DNA of 20,119 bases from UHGV virus genome UHGV-0174327, one strand, 5' to 3'. The notes beneath the pieces were generated by a model that was not told the DNA's origin, made no database searches, and saw nothing but the letters and a program-made list of their open reading frames with translations. Positions within the stretch are counted from its first letter, which is position 1. Each line of letters opens with the position of its first letter. This DNA comes from a virus. Below, piece after piece: positions 9,106 to 17,627 of the stretch. The position numbers and the translations under genes are program-made.

Positions 9106-9375
9106 TTACCAATTTCTTTTTTCGGAGTTTAGCCAATCACCGCATGGATAATATCTTGACGCCCATTCACCTTGTAAACGAGCTACAAACAGAATATCGT
9201 TACTATCGACCCTGGCTTGGAGTCCGTCACGCAGTTGAGTTGCGGTCAGCGTTGTATCTACTAACCAAAATGATTCAAGATATTTACAGTATGTAAATTG
9301 CTTTAGATAGTCAAAAACTTCATCGTAGTTTCTTCCCGGAGCCTTCAAGTCATAGGTTATACAATAAATAGCCAT
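9106..9375 (-). CDS. hypothetical 89-aa soluble protein (accessory cassette B, distal gene)
   Basis: MAIYCITYDLKAPGRNYDEVFDYLKQF...DSNDILFVARL; AT-rich; 3 nt downstream of the zinc-ribbon ORF; alternating beta/alpha pattern vaguely reminiscent of VapD/Cas2-like small proteins (unverified). Confidence 0.55.
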   Translation of the reverse strand: MAIYCITYDLKAPGRNYDEVFDYLKQFTYCKYLESFWLVDTTLTATQLRDGLQARVDSNDILFVARLQGEWASRYYPCGDWLNSEKRNW

Positions 9376-9378
9376 TCT

Positions 9379-9561
9379 CTAAGCTCCGCATTTTTTATCA
9401 TTTGGGGAACATCTTAACCTGCGACATTTGCGGCAATACGATTGAGGGATCAGCCGCTCTCCTTCCATAGTTCTAAAACCAAACACTTCTTCAATTTTGT
9501 TCAAATCACCACTTGCAATAACCCCACAGCAGGGGCAGACAGCCTCAATTTGAAATGCCAT
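9379..9561 (-). CDS. hypothetical ~60-aa zinc-ribbon protein (accessory cassette B, proximal gene)
   Basis: MAFQIEAVCPCCGV...CRKCRRLRC with CxxC...CxxC spacing; ATG at 9561 preceded by GGAGA (spacing 5); ORF-track start 9624 is an upstream extension. Confidence 0.5.
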   Translation of the reverse strand: MAFQIEAVCPCCGVIASGDLNKIEEVFGFRTMEGERLIPQSYCRKCRRLRCSPNDKKCGA

Positions 9562-9660
9562 GTCTATCTCCATTCCACATGTTGAATGTAGGGTAATACT
9601 TCCTTTCAAGCAAAAATGAGACAAGGATCTTGAAACCTAATTTAAACTTGCTTGCGCGCG

Positions 9661-9679
9661 CTCGTATCCCCGCCACGCC
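9661..9679 (-). other. cos-like site (cohesive-end sequence) of the prophage
   Basis: Reverse complement reads GGCGTGGCGGGGATACGAG followed by CGCGCGC; the P2/P4 cohesive end as I recall it is GGCGAGGCGGGGAAAGCAC followed by TGCGCGC (14/19 identical); location downstream of portal Q is where P2 has cos. Confidence 0.45.
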
Positions 9680-9714
9680 TGCCCGCTTTTTGTAGCGATT
9701 TTCATGCAGGTGCA

Positions 9715-9748
9715 TGACATAAGCAAAAGCCCACCAGAACTGGCGGGC
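9715..9748 (-). terminator. rho-independent terminator ending the three-gene cassette A
   Basis: Stem GCCCACCAG/CTGGCGGGC (one mismatch) followed on the minus strand by UUUUGCUU. Confidence 0.4.
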
Positions 9749-9796
9749 CTCAGCAAAAACGATCCTCAAACGATCATGCATATTCATGCGGCATAG

Positions 9797-10306
9797 TCAT
9801 GCAGTGACTTTGGTCTGGTCAGGCGTAGAAAAATCTTCGAAAGATTTATAAGTTTCAGTATCAAATATTGAAATACTCTCAACCTGATCCATTGGGATTA
9901 CATGCCTAAAATGATTTAAGTTCAGTGGAGTTGAGTCTGCTGTAATATTTTTACTAAGGTAAAGTTCATAGTAACGATGCTGCTCATGGTATCTGAGCGT
10001 ATCTTTATCACGATAACCACTGATGTATGGTATGAGAGCCAGATGCTGAGTTTCCTGATGCTCCATCCGAGGAGCAGCTACGTAACCAATGTAAACTTTT
10101 CTGGATTTTAGCGTAACAAAGATGAGCTTACCTTCATCTATAGCCTGAACTAACAGTGACTCAATTCCATCTTGAGCTGCCATCTCGCGATATGCAGATT
10201 GACGAATCTCTTCGTTTTCTATTGCTCTTCGCGCATTGTTACCTTGGTCATAAGCAATAAACACCGCAAGCAGCATAGACAACACAAAGAACAATGGGTA
10301 AGACAT
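9797..10306 (-). CDS. hypothetical ~169-aa protein with N-terminal TM helix and soluble C-terminal domain (cassette A, gene 3)
   Basis: MSYPLFFVLSMLLAVFIAY then hydrophilic domain; start at ATG 10306 five nt after the gene-2 stop (ORF-track 10342 is a GTG extension overlapping gene 2); AT-rich. Confidence 0.55.
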   Translation of the reverse strand: MSYPLFFVLSMLLAVFIAYDQGNNARRAIENEEIRQSAYREMAAQDGIESLLVQAIDEGKLIFVTLKSRKVYIGYVAAPRMEHQETQHLALIPYISGYRDKDTLRYHEQHRYYELYLSKNITADSTPLNLNHFRHVIPMDQVESISIFDTETYKSFEDFSTPDQTKVTA

Positions 10307-10311
10307 TATCT

Positions 10312-10578
10312 TTACGTCTGTGAGCCATGAATAAAAGTCCACATGTAACTTAGGCCAAAAATAACCAAAAAATTGATAACTGAGCTTATAACTAGCAAGG
10401 TAACGAATGTAACAGCCATCAGAGTAAACCCCTGAATAGCAAACTTACAACCATGCATAGCTACATAAAAATAGGAATTCCAACCATTACTTCTTGCTTG
10501 CCTGATGCGGGACTGGTAATGATTTTCGGTGTACCAGAACCCGCAAACCAGGACGACCATGATAACTAAGGGTCCCAT
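10312..10578 (-). CDS. hypothetical 88-aa integral membrane protein, two predicted TM segments (cassette A, gene 2)
   Basis: PLVIMVVLVCGFWY and FTLMAVTFVTLLVISSVINFLVIFGLSYMW hydrophobic stretches; start coupled to gene-1 stop (AAGGATGAGGAATG). Confidence 0.55.
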   Translation of the reverse strand: MGPLVIMVVLVCGFWYTENHYQSRIRQARSNGWNSYFYVAMHGCKFAIQGFTLMAVTFVTLLVISSVINFLVIFGLSYMWTFIHGSQT

Positions 10579-10581
10579 TCC

Positions 10582-10782
10582 TCATCCTTGTCGTTTTGCA
10601 GCCAATTCTTCCATTCTGGCACGCATTGATTCACGTACCTGCTTATTGTTCATGTTTAAGGTCGCCGCACCATTAGCATCTGTGATAATTTTACTATTAT
10701 CAGACTGTTGCACATCCTGACGGATGACATCCTGCATAATCTTACCTGGTGCAGAGAGAACTTTGCGCAGAAGTTCAGACAT
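10582..10782 (-). CDS. hypothetical 66-aa hydrophilic protein (cassette A, gene 1)
   Basis: MSELLRKVLSAPGKIMQDVIRQ...; ATG at 10782 preceded by AAGGAGG (spacing 5); ORF-track start 10857 is an upstream extension. Confidence 0.5.
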   Translation of the reverse strand: MSELLRKVLSAPGKIMQDVIRQDVQQSDNSKIITDANGAATLNMNNKQVRESMRARMEELAAKRQG

Positions 10783-10835
10783 ATTTTCCTCCTTATGCCT
10801 CAAACGCCACGGATTGTGGTGCATGGAAGCTGTCA

Positions 10836-10880
10836 TCTTATGATTATAGGACAACAAAAATACGAAACTATTCGAAGAGT
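10836..10880 (-). promoter_or_regulatory. candidate sigma70 promoter for cassette A (perfect TATAAT -10 on minus strand at 10848..10843)
   Basis: Minus strand reads ...ttgttgtccTATAATcataag...; -35 is weak (TAGTTT); about 55-nt leader to the ATG at 10782. Confidence 0.3.
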
Positions 10881-11001: not shown

Positions 11002-11232
11002 CTAATGTAACCAGCTGTCGTCTTCCCACACCTTCTGCATAATTTTCATCACTTGCTTCCTTTCTTCGTCCAGTTGCAGTCCGGTCAGTTCCACACCGTT
11101 AGAGCTACCTTTGCGGATACGAATTACCGTTTTGGGATACAGGGGGCGCAGATTGCGGTAAAGCTCGGATTCAAGGGCGTCCAGTGTAGACTGGCTAATC
11201 TTCTGCTCTTTATCGATCATTATTTCAATGCG
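11002..11232 (-). CDS. dinI: DinI-family protein (SOS-regulated RecA modulator homologue)
   Basis: MRIEIMIDKEQKISQSTLDALESELYRNLRPLYPKTVIRIRKGSSNGVELTGLQLDEERKQVMKIMQKVWEDDSWLH parallels E. coli DinI (MRIEVTIAK...WESADDW) as recalled; SD GAGGTGA; downstream of a LexA box. Confidence 0.7.
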   Translation of the reverse strand, partial: RIEIMIDKEQKISQSTLDALESELYRNLRPLYPKTVIRIRKGSSNGVELTGLQLDEERKQVMKIMQKVWEDDSWLH

Positions 11233-11245
11233 CATAAAAGTCACC

Positions 11246-11434
11246 TCAGCTGATGACATCCATTGAGCGGTTGTATTCGTGGGTTCTGATTTTTGCCATG
11301 AGTTCATCTGTTAGTTCAGAAACCCACTGCAAAGCCAGCCCCTTCTCTTCATCACTACACTCACTAGCCGCTACAAGCTTAAGAAAAAAATCAATGCGCT
11401 GGAGCTTCAAAGACTCCAAAAAATAGTCCTGCAT
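11246..11434 (-). CDS. hypothetical 62-aa protein, first gene of the LexA-controlled operon (possible Tum-like antirepressor, speculative)
   Basis: ATG at 11434 preceded by AGGAGGAAAG; about 45 nt downstream of a canonical LexA box; position corresponds to the 186 tum locus. Confidence 0.45.
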   Translation of the reverse strand: MQDYFLESLKLQRIDFFLKLVAASECSDEEKGLALQWVSELTDELMAKIRTHEYNRSMDVIS

Positions 11435-11474
11435 CTTTCCTCCTATGACACCAAAGCAATACTGTATACATAAC

Positions 11475-11494
11475 CACTGTTTATATTTACAGTA
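11475..11494. promoter_or_regulatory. LexA operator (SOS box) overlapping the promoter of the 62-aa/dinI-like operon
   Basis: CTGT-ttatattt-ACAG (11477..11492) fits CTGT-N8-ACAG with AT-rich spacer; a weaker overlapping CTGT-N8-CCAC half-match at 11462..11477; TATACT -10-like hexamer adjacent on minus strand. Confidence 0.6.
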
Positions 11495-11586
11495 TATAAT
11501 AATCTTACTGATGTAAAACGTTTTTTTACGTTCATCAGCCTGATATGCCTGGTATTATTAAGAGCACGAATTGTTAACCCGCGTAA

Positions 11587-11943
11587 TTAATACAGGTTCC
11601 GCCACTTATCATCTTCCTTCAGACGCTGGTTCCGATAGAAGATACGCAGGCCTGCTCCTGACGGAATACTGCCACCGCGAAGGAGTAAATCGACCTCTTT
11701 CTCGCTGCCATCAAATCCTCTGGACTTCAGTTCATAGACGAGCTGCTGTCGTTGATGGTCTGTAATTCGCTGTTTGTAGTCTCTACGCCGTTTCGGTTTC
11801 ACCAGGCGTAACCTTACAGCCAGCTCCCGGCGCTCTTTTTTGTTCATACTGTGCAGAAAATCGTGCAACTCCTTGTCATCCATGCGGGTAATATCCGTTC
11901 TGGTGTCCCCATCAGCTGATTTATCTTTCTCCTGTTGGTTCAA
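11587..11943 (-). CDS. hypothetical basic protein downstream of and overlapping replication gene A; start uncertain (TTG 11943, or ATG 11883)
   Basis: Lys/Arg-rich ([22 protein letters not shown]); no strong SD at any candidate start; conserved position after A in P2-like phages. Confidence 0.4.
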
Positions 11944-14027
11944 ATTTTCAGCAAGGGGACAGTTATTGCCACGAGTCCAAGGGGACAGTTATTGCCACGA
12001 GTCCAAGGGGCGCAAGCGCCCTGGTCGGCTGCCGCCTCCTGAACGTCAACGGCCTTACGAACCATTTTCCACTTCACTGCATGAGTGCAGATCTTGCCCT
12101 CTGCAATGGGTGACCAGATGCCATAAATACGAATACCGTGATCACCATAGGCGGTCGGCTCTTCGTTGATTTCATAAGCGGTTCTGATCAAGTGATATTT
12201 GCGGGGAACCAACACGCCGCCCTGCTTCATAATGTAGGTGGCAAAACAGCCAGCATCAGCAGCAGCCAGAATGGCATCAAGACGCGGATCATCCAGTACC
12301 GGCGCACCTGCTTTTTTGTCACCCTGCTGCCTTGCCGCCTGACCAGCCAGCAATCGCAGTTCACGGTAAGCCTGACGCCCCGGAATGCCAAAGAAGCGGA
12401 ATTGCTGAACACGATGCAGAGACGCCCAGGCATTAACGTATTCAGCGTTATCACGCAGGGATTTACCCGTTTCCTTGCTGATCTCGCCAGCCAGACCACG
12501 CCCGTCAATGTTCTTACTGATGTATTTCGCGATGTAGCTTGTCGGCGTTCCTTTGCGCGGGTTAATCAGCTCAGACTTAAAGCGTGGCCCCGTGTTATTG
12601 CCCAGTTCCTCGCGGTCTTCACGGATGGCAAACTTACGCAGTAATGCAGTGATGGCGCGGCGGTCTTTTTTACGCATGAAGCACATGAGATGCCAGTGCA
12701 CAGTACCGTCATGATGCGGCTCAGCCACCCGCACGCCATACCACCGCAATCCGGCTTTGTGCATCGCCTTACGAAATGCAGCAAACATGCCGACCAGATA
12801 ATCACTGCTTTGTCTTACCGTCGCATTTGTCCAGGTCGGGTTTGGTCTGCCGTTATTGAGCGTGGAATGGAAACGTGACGGACAGGTGATGGTGTAGAAA
12901 ACGGCGCAGTCACCGCGCATTTCCGCGATAAGCTCCAGACCTTTAACGCAGGCCATCATCTCATTGCGGCGATGTGCCGGGTTGCTGCTGCTGGCGTTTA
13001 CCACATCTTCCATATCCAGCGTGTCTCCGTCTTCGTTCACCAGTTCATGAGAACGGAAAAACTCCAGCGACTTGCGGCGCTGCTCACGTTTATGCGTCAC
13101 TGCTTCATAGCTGACATAGGGAGATGCTTTTTTGCTGACCAGACAGACAGCACGCAACTGCTCTTCCCGCCATTCGCAACGCATCTTCCACAATTTTCGA
13201 TACCACCAGTCGGCGCAAAGCATACGTGCCAGCGAACCCGGTATGAGTTCATAGGGCACAGGTTTGCGGCGGTTTCTTTTCCGACGAAGTTTCTCAAACG
13301 CAGGCGGGATAACATCCAGACGCAGGGTTTCCGCAGCCACCTTTTCCCATGTCTTGCGGATTTCTTCTGGCTTAACGTCATCGGTGGCGTACAAATCACC
13401 ACAAGCGGCCTCAAGACACATGCTCATATGCGCTGCTACCAGGGTGGACAGGCGTTTCACCTGATCCTGGCTCATTTCAGGCAGGATCAGCAGCCCCTCC
13501 AGCCCTTGATGGCTTGCCATAAAACGGAAAGAAACAGATAGCTGACTGTCACGTACACAATCCAGTCGCTCCAGACATGGCTTAATCGTCTCACGCAAAT
13601 AGCGGGAATAAGCCTTTGGCCTGCCCAGGCTGCTGAAGTATTCGATACGTTGCATCAGCGGCTTGCTGATATGAGAAGGCTGGGCGCTGACATCTGCCAG
13701 AATGACCATGTCCGGGTTAAAACGCTGCTGCTCATGCGCCAGCTTTGCCCGGCTAATGAGCTTATCCTGCTCCATTTCGCGCTGGACAGGATCACGGGAT
13801 TCATTAAAGAAATAACGCTCCCAGACCTGCTCACTCAGTGCCTCGCGGCGCAGTTGTTCCTGCTCGTTATCGGCAGCGTACAGAGTGATCAGGTTTGAAA
13901 GTGCAGACTCCGGCGCAACTTCCGCCGGATCCAGATAAGGGTTAATGGCCTTTTTCGGGCCGTTCCATGAAAATGCTGCGGCAGCCTCGTTAAAGCCGCT
14001 AGAGTTGCTCATATCGTCATGACTCAT
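11940..14027 (-). CDS. A: replication initiation endonuclease (P2/186 gpA family, rolling-circle initiator)
   Basis: 695 aa, size and sequence consistent with 186/P2 A; ATG at 14027 overlaps dam stop (ATGA). Confidence 0.85.
11952..12010. repeat. tandem direct repeat, 26 bp x 2.3 (CAAGGGGACAGTTATTGCCACGAGTC) inside the 3' end of gene A
   Basis: Copies at 11952..11977 and 11978..12003 are identical; partial third copy CAAGGGG at 12004..12010, followed by palindrome GGGCGCaaGCGCCC. Confidence 0.85.
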
Positions 14028-16932: not shown

Positions 16933-17057
16933 GATGCAACATTCCTCGTTTAATGATGATTAATCAGGACGAATACGGATCGTTTGTATTTTGTGAACAC
17001 CATAAACATACGATCGCACAGTGAAATCGTCAAGATAAAAGTTCACTTGGAGTGACC
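16933..17057. promoter_or_regulatory. immunity switch region between apl (-) and cI (+): promoters and operators
   Basis: 125-bp intergenic region with repeated GTGAA/TTCAC half-sites (16993..16998, 17021..17025, 17042..17046) and AT-rich -10-like hexamers; exact promoter positions not resolved. Confidence 0.4.
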
Positions 17058-17627
17058 ATGAATTTGGAGAAAGGCGGACGAGGCGCTATAGAGCGCATGG
17101 TAGAAGCTTATGGATTCAAGACTCGACAGGCGTTGTGCGATCATTTAGGAATCTCTAAAAGTACACTCGCCACACGCTACATGCGTGACTCATTCCCAGC
17201 AGAATGGGTAATCCAGTGCGCCCTTGAAACAGGCACCTCGCTTAATTGGCTCACAACCGGGCATGGTTCAAAGCAAACTTCAGGTAATACAAATACTATG
17301 GAAGTTGCTAAATATGTATTATCTGATGGGGCCTTGTGTGAAGACGGTTTTTATATTTTCGATAGAGAATTTCTACCGTCGGCATTCAAGAATCTTTTTG
17401 TAATCACAGATAATAATTCTGAATTTATTTGTGATAAGGAATTTGATGATATACGTGATGGTAAATGGGTAATAAGTATTGATGGCGAAATAACGATCCG
17501 TGACATTACTCGTTTACCCGGTGGAAGAATCTTCGTCGAGGGTGGAAACAGAGCCTTCGAATGCAAGATAGAAGATATTGAAATAATTGGTAAAATTATA
17601 AGTTTAACAGTCAAGTATGTTAAATAG
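17058..17627 (+). CDS. cI: CI immunity repressor (186-type; N-terminal HTH domain plus AT-rich C-terminal domain)
   Basis: MNLEKGGRGAIERMVEAYGFKTRQALCDHLGISKSTLATRYMRDSFPAEWVIQCALETGTSLNWLTTGHG N-terminal HTH; ATG 17058 preceded by GGAG; about 189 aa. Confidence 0.7.
   Translation: MNLEKGGRGAIERMVEAYGFKTRQALCDHLGISKSTLATRYMRDSFPAEWVIQCALETGTSLNWLTTGHGSKQTSGNTNTMEVAKYVLSDGALCEDGFYIFDREFLPSAFKNLFVITDNNSEFICDKEFDDIRDGKWVISIDGEITIRDITRLPGGRIFVEGGNRAFECKIEDIEIIGKIISLTVKYVK

Follow-up and report, generated by a model that had tools for sequence, protein, structure and literature searches.

The virus genome UHGV-0174327, a stretch of 20,119 nucleotides that we call the window, carries a P2-like (Peduoviridae) prophage, which lies beside an Escherichia coli-type rcdA gene. 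Its replication gene A, on the minus strand, codes for the initiator gpA and contains a perfect 26-bp tandem duplication; the prophage is otherwise intact. Tandem Repeats Finder recovered this array as the sole strong one in the window, at 11952-12010, with a period of 26, 2.3 copies, 100% matches and a score of 118. A repeat search gave the unit CAAGGGGACAGTTATTGCCACGAGTC on the plus strand, in two perfect copies at 11952-11977 and 11978-12003. The second plus-strand copy is directly followed by the 7-nt CAAGGGG (12004-12010), and the palindrome GGGCGCaaGCGCCC / GGGCGCAAGCGCCC directly follows the repeat at 12008-12021.

An earlier note on this DNA had described the duplication with these positions, a partial third copy and the palindrome, and all of this was confirmed by Tandem Repeats Finder, the repeat search and the sequence itself. 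It was also right that the C-terminal part of A is translated in two frames across the copies, as seen in the translations of the open reading frames (ORFs). It had, however, placed the repeat at the natural 3' end of A. Gene A runs on the minus strand, its natural stop codon is about 360 nt downstream of the repeat, and the protein of relatives is 804 aa long. The features of the locus, in the coding order of gene A, are as follows:

11940-14027, minus strand: truncated gpA ORF of 695 aa, with native residues 1-684 and an 11-residue out-of-frame tail; TGA stop at 11940-11942
12690-12719, minus strand: HUH-type metal-binding motif, kept in the truncated protein; columns invariant in the alignment with P2/186 gpA
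12501-12536, minus strand: two-tyrosine motif, kept in the truncated protein; columns invariant in the same alignment
12008-12021, minus strand: palindrome, GGGCGC-TT-GCGCCC when read on the coding strand, whose end is 4 nt 5' of the predicted nick
12004-12010, minus strand: CCCCTTG (coding strand), natural 5' flank of the predicted nick, which on the plus strand looks like a partial third copy
Bond 12004/12003, minus strand: predicted origin nick 1 (CCCCTTG^GACTCG), also the left boundary of the duplication; placed by homology with the P2/186 annotation
11978-12003, minus strand: copy 1 of the repeat unit, GACTCGTGGCAATAACTGTCCCCTTG in coding order, carrying the conserved origin core CAATAACTGT, which codes for the invariant NNC of gpA
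11952-11977, minus strand: copy 2 of the unit, the extra 26 bp; exactly these 26 bp are missing from single-copy relatives
11587-11943, minus strand: orphaned C-terminal part of gpA (native residues ~687-804), a 118-aa ORF starting with TTG, now out of frame and not a separate gene

With copy 2, the gene gains a second potential nick site (11978|11977) and a frame shift of +26.

Gene A is broken by the duplication

Gene A has an uninterrupted frame of 2415 nt in phage Cartapus and in an E. coli prophage with one copy, and codes there for an 804-aa "replication endonuclease gpA." Over 1200 E. coli prophages share this single-copy form with an 804-aa gpA. In the window, the extra 26 bp shift the reading frame after residue 684 and cut off the conserved C-terminal 120 residues. 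Using tblastn, residues 1-683 of the GpA of phage 813R9 matched 14027..11976 and residues 671-803 matched 11988..11590. The 118-aa ORF is continuous with the rest of gpA in the alignment to the Cartapus protein and aligns with phrog_91 ("nicking at origin of replication") at positions 660-758. The translational coupling of A to a downstream basic protein, suggested in the earlier note, is thus an effect of the frameshift, the supposed protein being the out-of-frame C-terminus of gpA. In all seven genomes inspected (S88, EC261, M8, 19KM1863, MS7163, N53, and Res13), the two-copy allele was called a "frameshifted" pseudogene by the Prokaryotic Genome Annotation Pipeline (PGAP). The orphan ORF is also matched end to end (2-118 of 118) by phrog_23581 (118 aa), beside which phrog_14885 (246 aa) is named; the product of a split gene seems to have entered PHROGs as an independent family of "unknown function."

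The Pfam domain Phage_GPA (PF05840) spans residues 188-510 (E 2.5e-128, 428 bits for a cut-off of 31.4). This domain, the HUH motif and the two-tyrosine motif are all upstream of the frame break, and the active-site tyrosines of P2 are located in motif C (PMC3986222). The window thus has the domain and motifs of a P2 gpA-type initiator and lacks the full-length uninterrupted frame, of 804 aa in relatives. The ratio of nonsynonymous to synonymous polymorphism (pN/pS) was 0.16 for the C-terminal 118 codons versus 0.03 for the upstream core, in a sample of 58 close single-copy alleles without the diverged indel-bearing lineages. Such purifying selection indicates that the lost part is a constrained and functional part of gpA. 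The C-terminal module matched no Pfam family, no relative of gpA was found by sequence in the Protein Data Bank, and a single-sequence AlphaFold model of the 118-aa piece was uninformative (pLDDT 51).

We considered a rescue of the frame by programmed ribosomal frameshifting or transcriptional slippage and rejected it, since no X XXY YYZ heptamer is present in the 0 frame (CTG AAA ATT TGA read directly). Single-copy relatives, moreover, require no frameshift.

P2 gpA acts in cis. Because of this and of the removal of the constrained C-terminal module, a prophage with the duplicated site is probably replication-defective or impaired. Residual nicking activity of the truncated protein is possible since the gpA of phage 186 (694 aa) naturally lacks the distal C-terminal module. 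If the truncated gpA still nicks, a start at the downstream one of the two tandem nick sites and termination at the upstream one would give a one-copy circle, as in two-origin constructs of f1, phiX174, pT181, and pC194, and the frameshift could be self-correcting.

The single-copy form is the rule among relatives

A 601-bp query centred on the repeat matched 85 phage records and about 1260 complete E. coli genomes. The matched stretch was 575 bp in nearly all relatives, exactly 26 bp shorter, and at least about 98% of them carry a single copy. The two-copy junction was found in 8 of ~1261 E. coli genomes with the region (~0.6% of E. coli prophages of this type) and in none of the 85 phage records having it. 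The same junction, letter for letter, was shared by 8 complete E. coli genomes, among them S88, and by contigs from IMG/VR and from metagenomes. We left the 80 related IMG/VR loci, which are skewed toward intact genes, out of the frequency estimates. The 26-bp unit occurs in 1, 2, or 3 copies and a hexamer at the same site in 1 to 5, and among these only the 26-bp unit alters the frame.

The comparison with the A genes of relatives, which the earlier note had proposed, thus gave a clear answer: a single copy is usual and two copies are rare. Its suggestion of a recent slippage that altered the C-terminus of gpA was borne out as far as a recent insertion goes: relatives lack exactly these 26 bp. 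The proposal of an iteron-like origin element survived in part. The link to the origin stands, through the alignment with the P2 and 186 nick sites, and the iteron part falls with only 8 of ~1261 genomes having two copies. An iteron-type origin was rejected, as the copies are not conserved among related replicons. Iterons of theta-type and plasmid origins are likewise direct repeats at an origin but, unlike them, the repeat studied here has no conserved copy number, contains the nick site instead of forming a separate binding array, and disrupts the initiator gene.

Some pairs of origin-like sites were observed elsewhere. A scan of GTDB species representatives returned two matches only, an 11-bp microsatellite in Shewanella and an intergenic site pair in a metagenome-assembled genome (MAG) of Woeseiaceae, neither of which bears on the window allele. 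The latter pair (L065, CAZZKW010000064.1, 4508-4545), together with L036/L052 and L053, consists of intergenic origin-core-like sites, for example GAGTTCTGTCAATAACTGTACGTTC twice with a 25-nt period and stop codons in all surrounding frames. They are possibly P2-type nick sites that lie outside a gene A, in satellites perhaps or in elements of another kind. In another P2-like lineage (L018, IMGVR_UViG_2531839591_000017, ~650-720), two 186-type cores are present in frame with a 33-nt period (...SSVNNCTEGAWSSVNNCTEGG...). The copies are not perfectly tandem and their 7-nt spacer differs. In L018, two nick-site cores thus coexist with an intact gpA.

The repeated unit corresponds to the origin nick site of P2 and 186

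Nick sites are annotated inside gene A at 29892 in P2 (NC_001895) and, by similarity with P2, at 28576 in 186 (NC_001317). The 26-bp unit aligned base for base with both, at the same position in the gene, with the following surroundings:

P2: GCGGCATCGCCGCGCCTCG^GAGTCCTGTCAATAACTGT
186: GGGCGCTTCTGCGCCCTCTCG^GAGTTCTGTCAATAACTGT
Single-copy relatives of the window: GGGCGCTTGCGCCCCTTG^GACTCGTGGCAATAACTGT

The core common to the three is CTYG^GA(N10-11)CAATAACTGT. The P2 annotation designates the G located 5' of the G^G bond and the 186 annotation the G located 3' of it; jointly, they bracket one bond. Immediately 5' of the annotated nick, P2 GCCTCG and 186 CTCTCG aligned with CCCCTTG at 12004..12010. 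The stretch AATAACTGT codes for NNC, and N679, N680, and C681 are invariant in the gpA alignment. Across ~85 IMG/VR relatives, the origin stretch CCGACCAGGGCGCTTGCGCCCCTTGGACTCGTGGCAATAACTGTCCCC, from CCGACCAGGGCGC to TGTCCCC, is almost invariant although the next 30 nt are rewritten. Such near-invariance at the DNA level between diverging flanks is expected of a cis-acting site.

A GC-rich palindrome is present 4-6 nt 5' of the nick bond in every gpA lineage compared, with different stem sequences:

P2: GCGGC-ATC-GCCGC
186: GGGCGC-TTCT-GCGCCC
E92: GGGCGGC-CCT-GCCGCCC
OkiPb01677: TGCGGC-TTT-GCCGCA

Single-strand DNA folding of the origin predicted a small hairpin whose energy was no better than that of shuffled sequences (z -0.3, +0.2). 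The putative stem-loop is thus supported by the recurrence of a palindrome at one position with different sequences, and not by energetics; stem lengths vary between lineages and no formal covariation count was made. Judging from these alignments, the repeated unit is a homologue of the P2/186 origin nick site, and more exactly of the sequence directly 3' of the annotated nick. The origins of P2 and 186 are like that of the window in their place in the homologous gene, in their core with the invariant NNC and in the GC-rich stem-loop a few nt 5' of the nick. Unlike it, they consist of a single site without CCCCTTG repeat, whereas in the window the site is duplicated and gene A is frameshifted. 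The C-terminal region of the 804-aa gpA of the window lineage is also longer than in 186.

A family of duplications starts at the predicted nick

The insertions found in the region were of classes +6, +12, +18, +24, +21, +26, and +52, and all of them start at the predicted nick CCCCTTG^GACTCG. Apart from the 26-bp class, the E. coli length classes were all multiples of 3 above 575, and the alignment showed each to be a tandem duplication at the same bond:

+6, +12, +18, +24: CCCCTTG followed by (GACTCG) x2, x3, x4, x5, in GZ2408P, 17MR471, 120899, and ETEC-2265
+21: (GACTCGTGGCAATAACTGTCC) x2, in RM10809-3
+26: the 26-bp unit twice, in the window, S88, and others
+52: the 26-bp unit three times, in the IMG/VR contig L015

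The complete E. coli genomes contained 8 alleles of +26, 1 of +21, and 14 of the hexamer type. As the +21 duplication lacks flanking microhomology, its boundary is unambiguously the TTG^GAC bond. A 186-type origin from IMG/VR (L168) has an equally unambiguous +6 duplication (GAGTTC|GAGTTC) exactly at the annotated nick CTCG^GAGTTC. Hexamer duplications were also present in the diverged gpA lineages E92, VL40, and OkiPb01677, with three copies in Ecol_224, and in lineages without a second CCCCTTG.

The 26-bp duplication is recurrent and young

The flanks of the multi-copy alleles were compared over 900 + 360 bp. S88, MS7163, N53, and one gut-metagenome contig had identical alleles and flanks and were counted as one clone. 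The other +26/+52 alleles were each on their own background (EC261, M8, 19KM1863, Res13, L011, L015, L044, L049, L161, L170, and the window), with 14-193 pairwise differences outside the S88 clone. Almost all of them had a single-copy allele as nearest neighbor: 19KM1863 differed from the single-copy L066 at 1 of 1260 sites and L044 from Cartapus at 7 sites. The window allele was tied, with 38 differences from the two-copy EC261 and 39 from the single-copy L004. Two different downstream haplotypes occurred within 20 bp of the repeat. As multi-copy alleles are found on differing backgrounds, mostly nearest to single-copy alleles, the +26 duplication has arisen at least about 11 times.

The two-copy alleles formed no clade deeper than one host clone, and each duplication event is young, the copies being still identical, with the exception of L161. 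This allele (IMGVR_UViG_3300010260_000008, 2830-2878) is a +26 allele with a G-to-A change in the conserved core of the first copy (CAATAACTAT). In no other two-copy allele seen do the copies differ, so L161 may be older or "locked." Each two-copy allele is probably short-lived. The probable replication defect described above fits with two-copy alleles being rare, young, and never in deep clades.

Insertions in the region are confined to the predicted nick

In a position-unbiased scan, two exact anchors 148 nt apart were required and any insertion of 1-31 nt between them was allowed. It retrieved 5 metagenome and 5 IMG/VR loci, and all ten insertions (four +6 and six +26) were at the nick. With the same anchors, a search for deletions of 1-30 nt retrieved two loci, with -3 and -9, neither of them at the nick. 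The reciprocal -26 deletion was absent both from this 148-nt interval and from the E. coli genomes. Among 64 close relatives, no indel was found in 1363 bp of A-coding flanks. Both deletions that were retrieved are in frame (pair L181, IMGVR_UViG_2534681657_000021, and L180). The -9 allele has lost the 3' arm of the hairpin, CTTGCGCCC, which stands between CTTG microhomologies, and the -3 deletion is just upstream of the hairpin.

The intact gene A contains five pairs of 7-bp direct repeats with a period of at most 45. We chose GTCAGGC as the best-conserved control; its period of 33 keeps the frame, and a duplication there would do less harm. No duplication of this pair was found in the E. coli genomes and IMG/VR, versus 8 and 6, respectively, for the pair at the origin.

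Discussion

The 26-bp repeat is a recurrent tandem duplication of the origin nick site inside gene A, one of a set anchored at the predicted nick. We propose that gpA itself produces these duplications by nicking, extending and rejoining the origin, a reading that we consider fairly probable. The common left boundary at the predicted nick in two lineages of differing sequence, the variable right ends, the lack of reciprocal deletion, the silent control repeat and, for some alleles, the absence of microhomology point to a process with its start at the nick and with duplications as its sole product; from this we infer the involvement of gpA. The protein would cut the origin and stay covalently attached to the 5' end. 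The 3'-OH end would be extended by N nt, either at an abortive initiation or as an overshoot at termination, and gpA would join the bound 5' end to this extended 3' end instead of the original one. The outcome would be a tandem duplication of the first N nt after the nick. A value of N = 26 would be favored, with an extended end (CCCCTTG-3'OH) that equals the natural end over 7 nt and could act as a pseudo-termination site; this identity would explain the recurrence of the 26-bp length. For N = 6 in the lineage of the window, the new end ...ACTCG-3'OH would resemble the P2/186 end ...CTCG. An overshoot of ~10 nt past the nick has been described for rolling-circle termination in plasmids (Khan 2005, as quoted in PMC5037232).

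Several points weigh against this scenario. The nick position is a prediction from the GenBank annotations of P2 and 186. A perfect 7-bp direct repeat, a classic slippage substrate, flanks the +26 event, and hexamer arrays could grow by slippage after a first duplication. The extended 3' ends of the 186-type +6 and of the +21 are unlike the natural end, so the idea of pseudo-termination fails for some values of N. Selection may filter the insertions that persist, in-frame ones being probably tolerated in this linker alone. The tests covered a single control repeat and a single 148-nt interval.

The main competitor is ordinary replication slippage, in which the host replisome would slip between CCCCTTG repeats 19 bp apart, perhaps aided by the GC-rich hairpin and without any role of gpA, the shared boundary resulting from local sequence and selection. 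The perfect 7-bp repeat at both ends of the duplicated segment speaks for it, as do the adjoining palindrome, the lack of duplication in lineages whose second repeat is CCCCCTG, and hexamer copy numbers of 2-5 that resemble the behavior of a microsatellite. The window allele indeed has the hallmarks of a slipped-strand duplication: 7-bp microhomology, perfect young copies, a frameshift, and a pseudogene annotation. The +21 and 186-type +6 alleles, however, start at the same bond without microhomology, and the +6 duplication also occurs in lineages without the 7-bp repeat. Slippage should also yield the -26 deletion, which was never seen, and would not be expected to spare the comparable 7-bp control repeat of the same gene or to place all ten insertions of the unbiased scan at the nick. 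Slippage alone, as envisaged in the earlier note, thus leaves unexplained the single left boundary, the missing reciprocal deletion and the silent control repeat. Slippage, possible for the +26 event and for the expansion of hexamer arrays, is in our view rather unlikely.

The repeat could also be a selected functional arrangement, either a two-site (iteron-like) origin or a split gpA whose C-terminal module is made by translational coupling, or both. The 118-aa ORF starts with a TTG that overlaps the TGA ending the 695-aa ORF, the 186 gpA does without the distal module, the L018 lineage combines two in-frame origin cores with an intact gpA, and a 118-aa PHROGs family matches the orphan ORF. 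Against this, the distribution among relatives described above (one copy in most of them, two-copy alleles no deeper than one host clone, and no junction in phage records) largely refutes such an arrangement. No Shine-Dalgarno sequence is present upstream of the TTG on the coding strand, PGAP classes the two-copy alleles as pseudogenes, and the 3-copy allele is frameshifted too, which makes a functional arrangement very improbable. An assembly or sequencing artefact in the source genome, which the earlier note had named as a possible refutation, has hardly any credibility left. Assemblers can miscount short tandem repeats and the window comes without reads, but the junction is the same in the 8 independently sequenced complete genomes and the IMG/VR and metagenome contigs, on differing haplotype backgrounds.

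Nicking and rejoining by gpA would have counterparts in other rolling-circle systems. Michel and Ehrlich in 1986 and Gros and colleagues in 1987 reportedly described illegitimate recombination or aberrant termination mediated by the initiator at rolling-circle origins (pC194, pUB110, and gene II of M13/f1). As proposed for the window, the end-points of these errors are exactly at the nick, a pseudo-site sharing nucleotides 5' of the nick can terminate, and synthesis overshoots the nick at termination. Unlike in the window, they are mostly laboratory deletions or plasmid fusions. The events described here are short tandem duplications that occur as a natural polymorphism of prophages, inside the coding sequence of the initiator itself, which they therefore inactivate. 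A partial duplication of the target has also been mentioned for the Rep nick of adeno-associated virus (AAV) (Henckaerts 2009, as cited in PMC5714925). The P2/186-type origin, the PGAP pseudogene call elsewhere and the nick-associated illegitimate recombination in plasmids, M13, and AAV are thus already known. In limited searches of the literature, we found no description of origin duplications in P2-like phages, nor of a natural and recurrent nick-anchored series inside an initiator gene.

Taken alone, the window shows an ordinary inactivating mutation, which breaks the replication gene and leaves the other prophage genes of the window intact. The downstream "small basic protein" should be left out of gene annotations. 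The wider pattern is the interesting part. The natural variants in thousands of genomes seem to pinpoint the gpA nick, to a single bond, for an entire group of P2-like phages, and the origin is a strongly biased duplication hot spot. If gpA causes the duplications, they would be a population-scale trace of the errors of a rolling-circle initiator, so far known mainly from laboratory plasmids and M13, and a recurrent route of replication loss for P2-like prophages.

It is tempting, though speculative and in our opinion improbable, to go one step further and to consider an origin inside gene A as a self-inflicted, possibly reversible off-switch. The chemistry of gpA would occasionally duplicate the nick site by 26 bp and so frameshift gpA, lysogens would survive induction, which the host may favor, and the two sites could later resolve to one, by initiation at one and termination at the other, restoring a viable phage. 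Since a P2-type phage needs replication for its late gene expression and its lysis, induction would leave these lysogens alive. Were this true, the natural alleles (+6n, +21, +26, and +52) would record aborted initiations at single-nucleotide resolution.

Other features of the prophage

Gene A is the sole broken gene of the window. In comparison with phage 813R9, the other phage genes are full length (26 of 26), except for variable C-terminal ends of GpS and the integrase.

Between the end of gene A and the orf62/DinI-like operon, within 11435-11586, we observed the LexA-like box TACTGTAAATATAAACAGTG (~11476-11495, minus strand). It is a good match to the LexA box CTGT-N8-ACAG and occupies the place that the SOS-controlled p95-tum promoter has in phage 186. 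Pfam DinI matches the ORF at 11002-11307 (E 1.3e-22). The LexA-like box and this ORF suggest, from sequence, that the prophage may be SOS-inducible.

Five small ORFs (89, 81, 181, 88, and 91 aa) are located on the minus strand at 9106-10857, between the portal gene gpQ and the DinI-like gene, and had no significant match in Pfam (one match was far below the family cut-off). They occupy the variable region between gpA and gpQ that Rousset et al. 2022 (PMC9122126) described as a "defence hotspot" in P2-like phages, and the cargo of the window is unlike that of the two-copy relatives examined, which have TIR, HEPN, and other genes.

The cI repressor (17052-17612, plus strand) is only 54% identical to that of phage 813R9, to which the prophage is otherwise 93-100% identical, and Cox is 85% identical. 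These values indicate a different immunity type on a conserved backbone.

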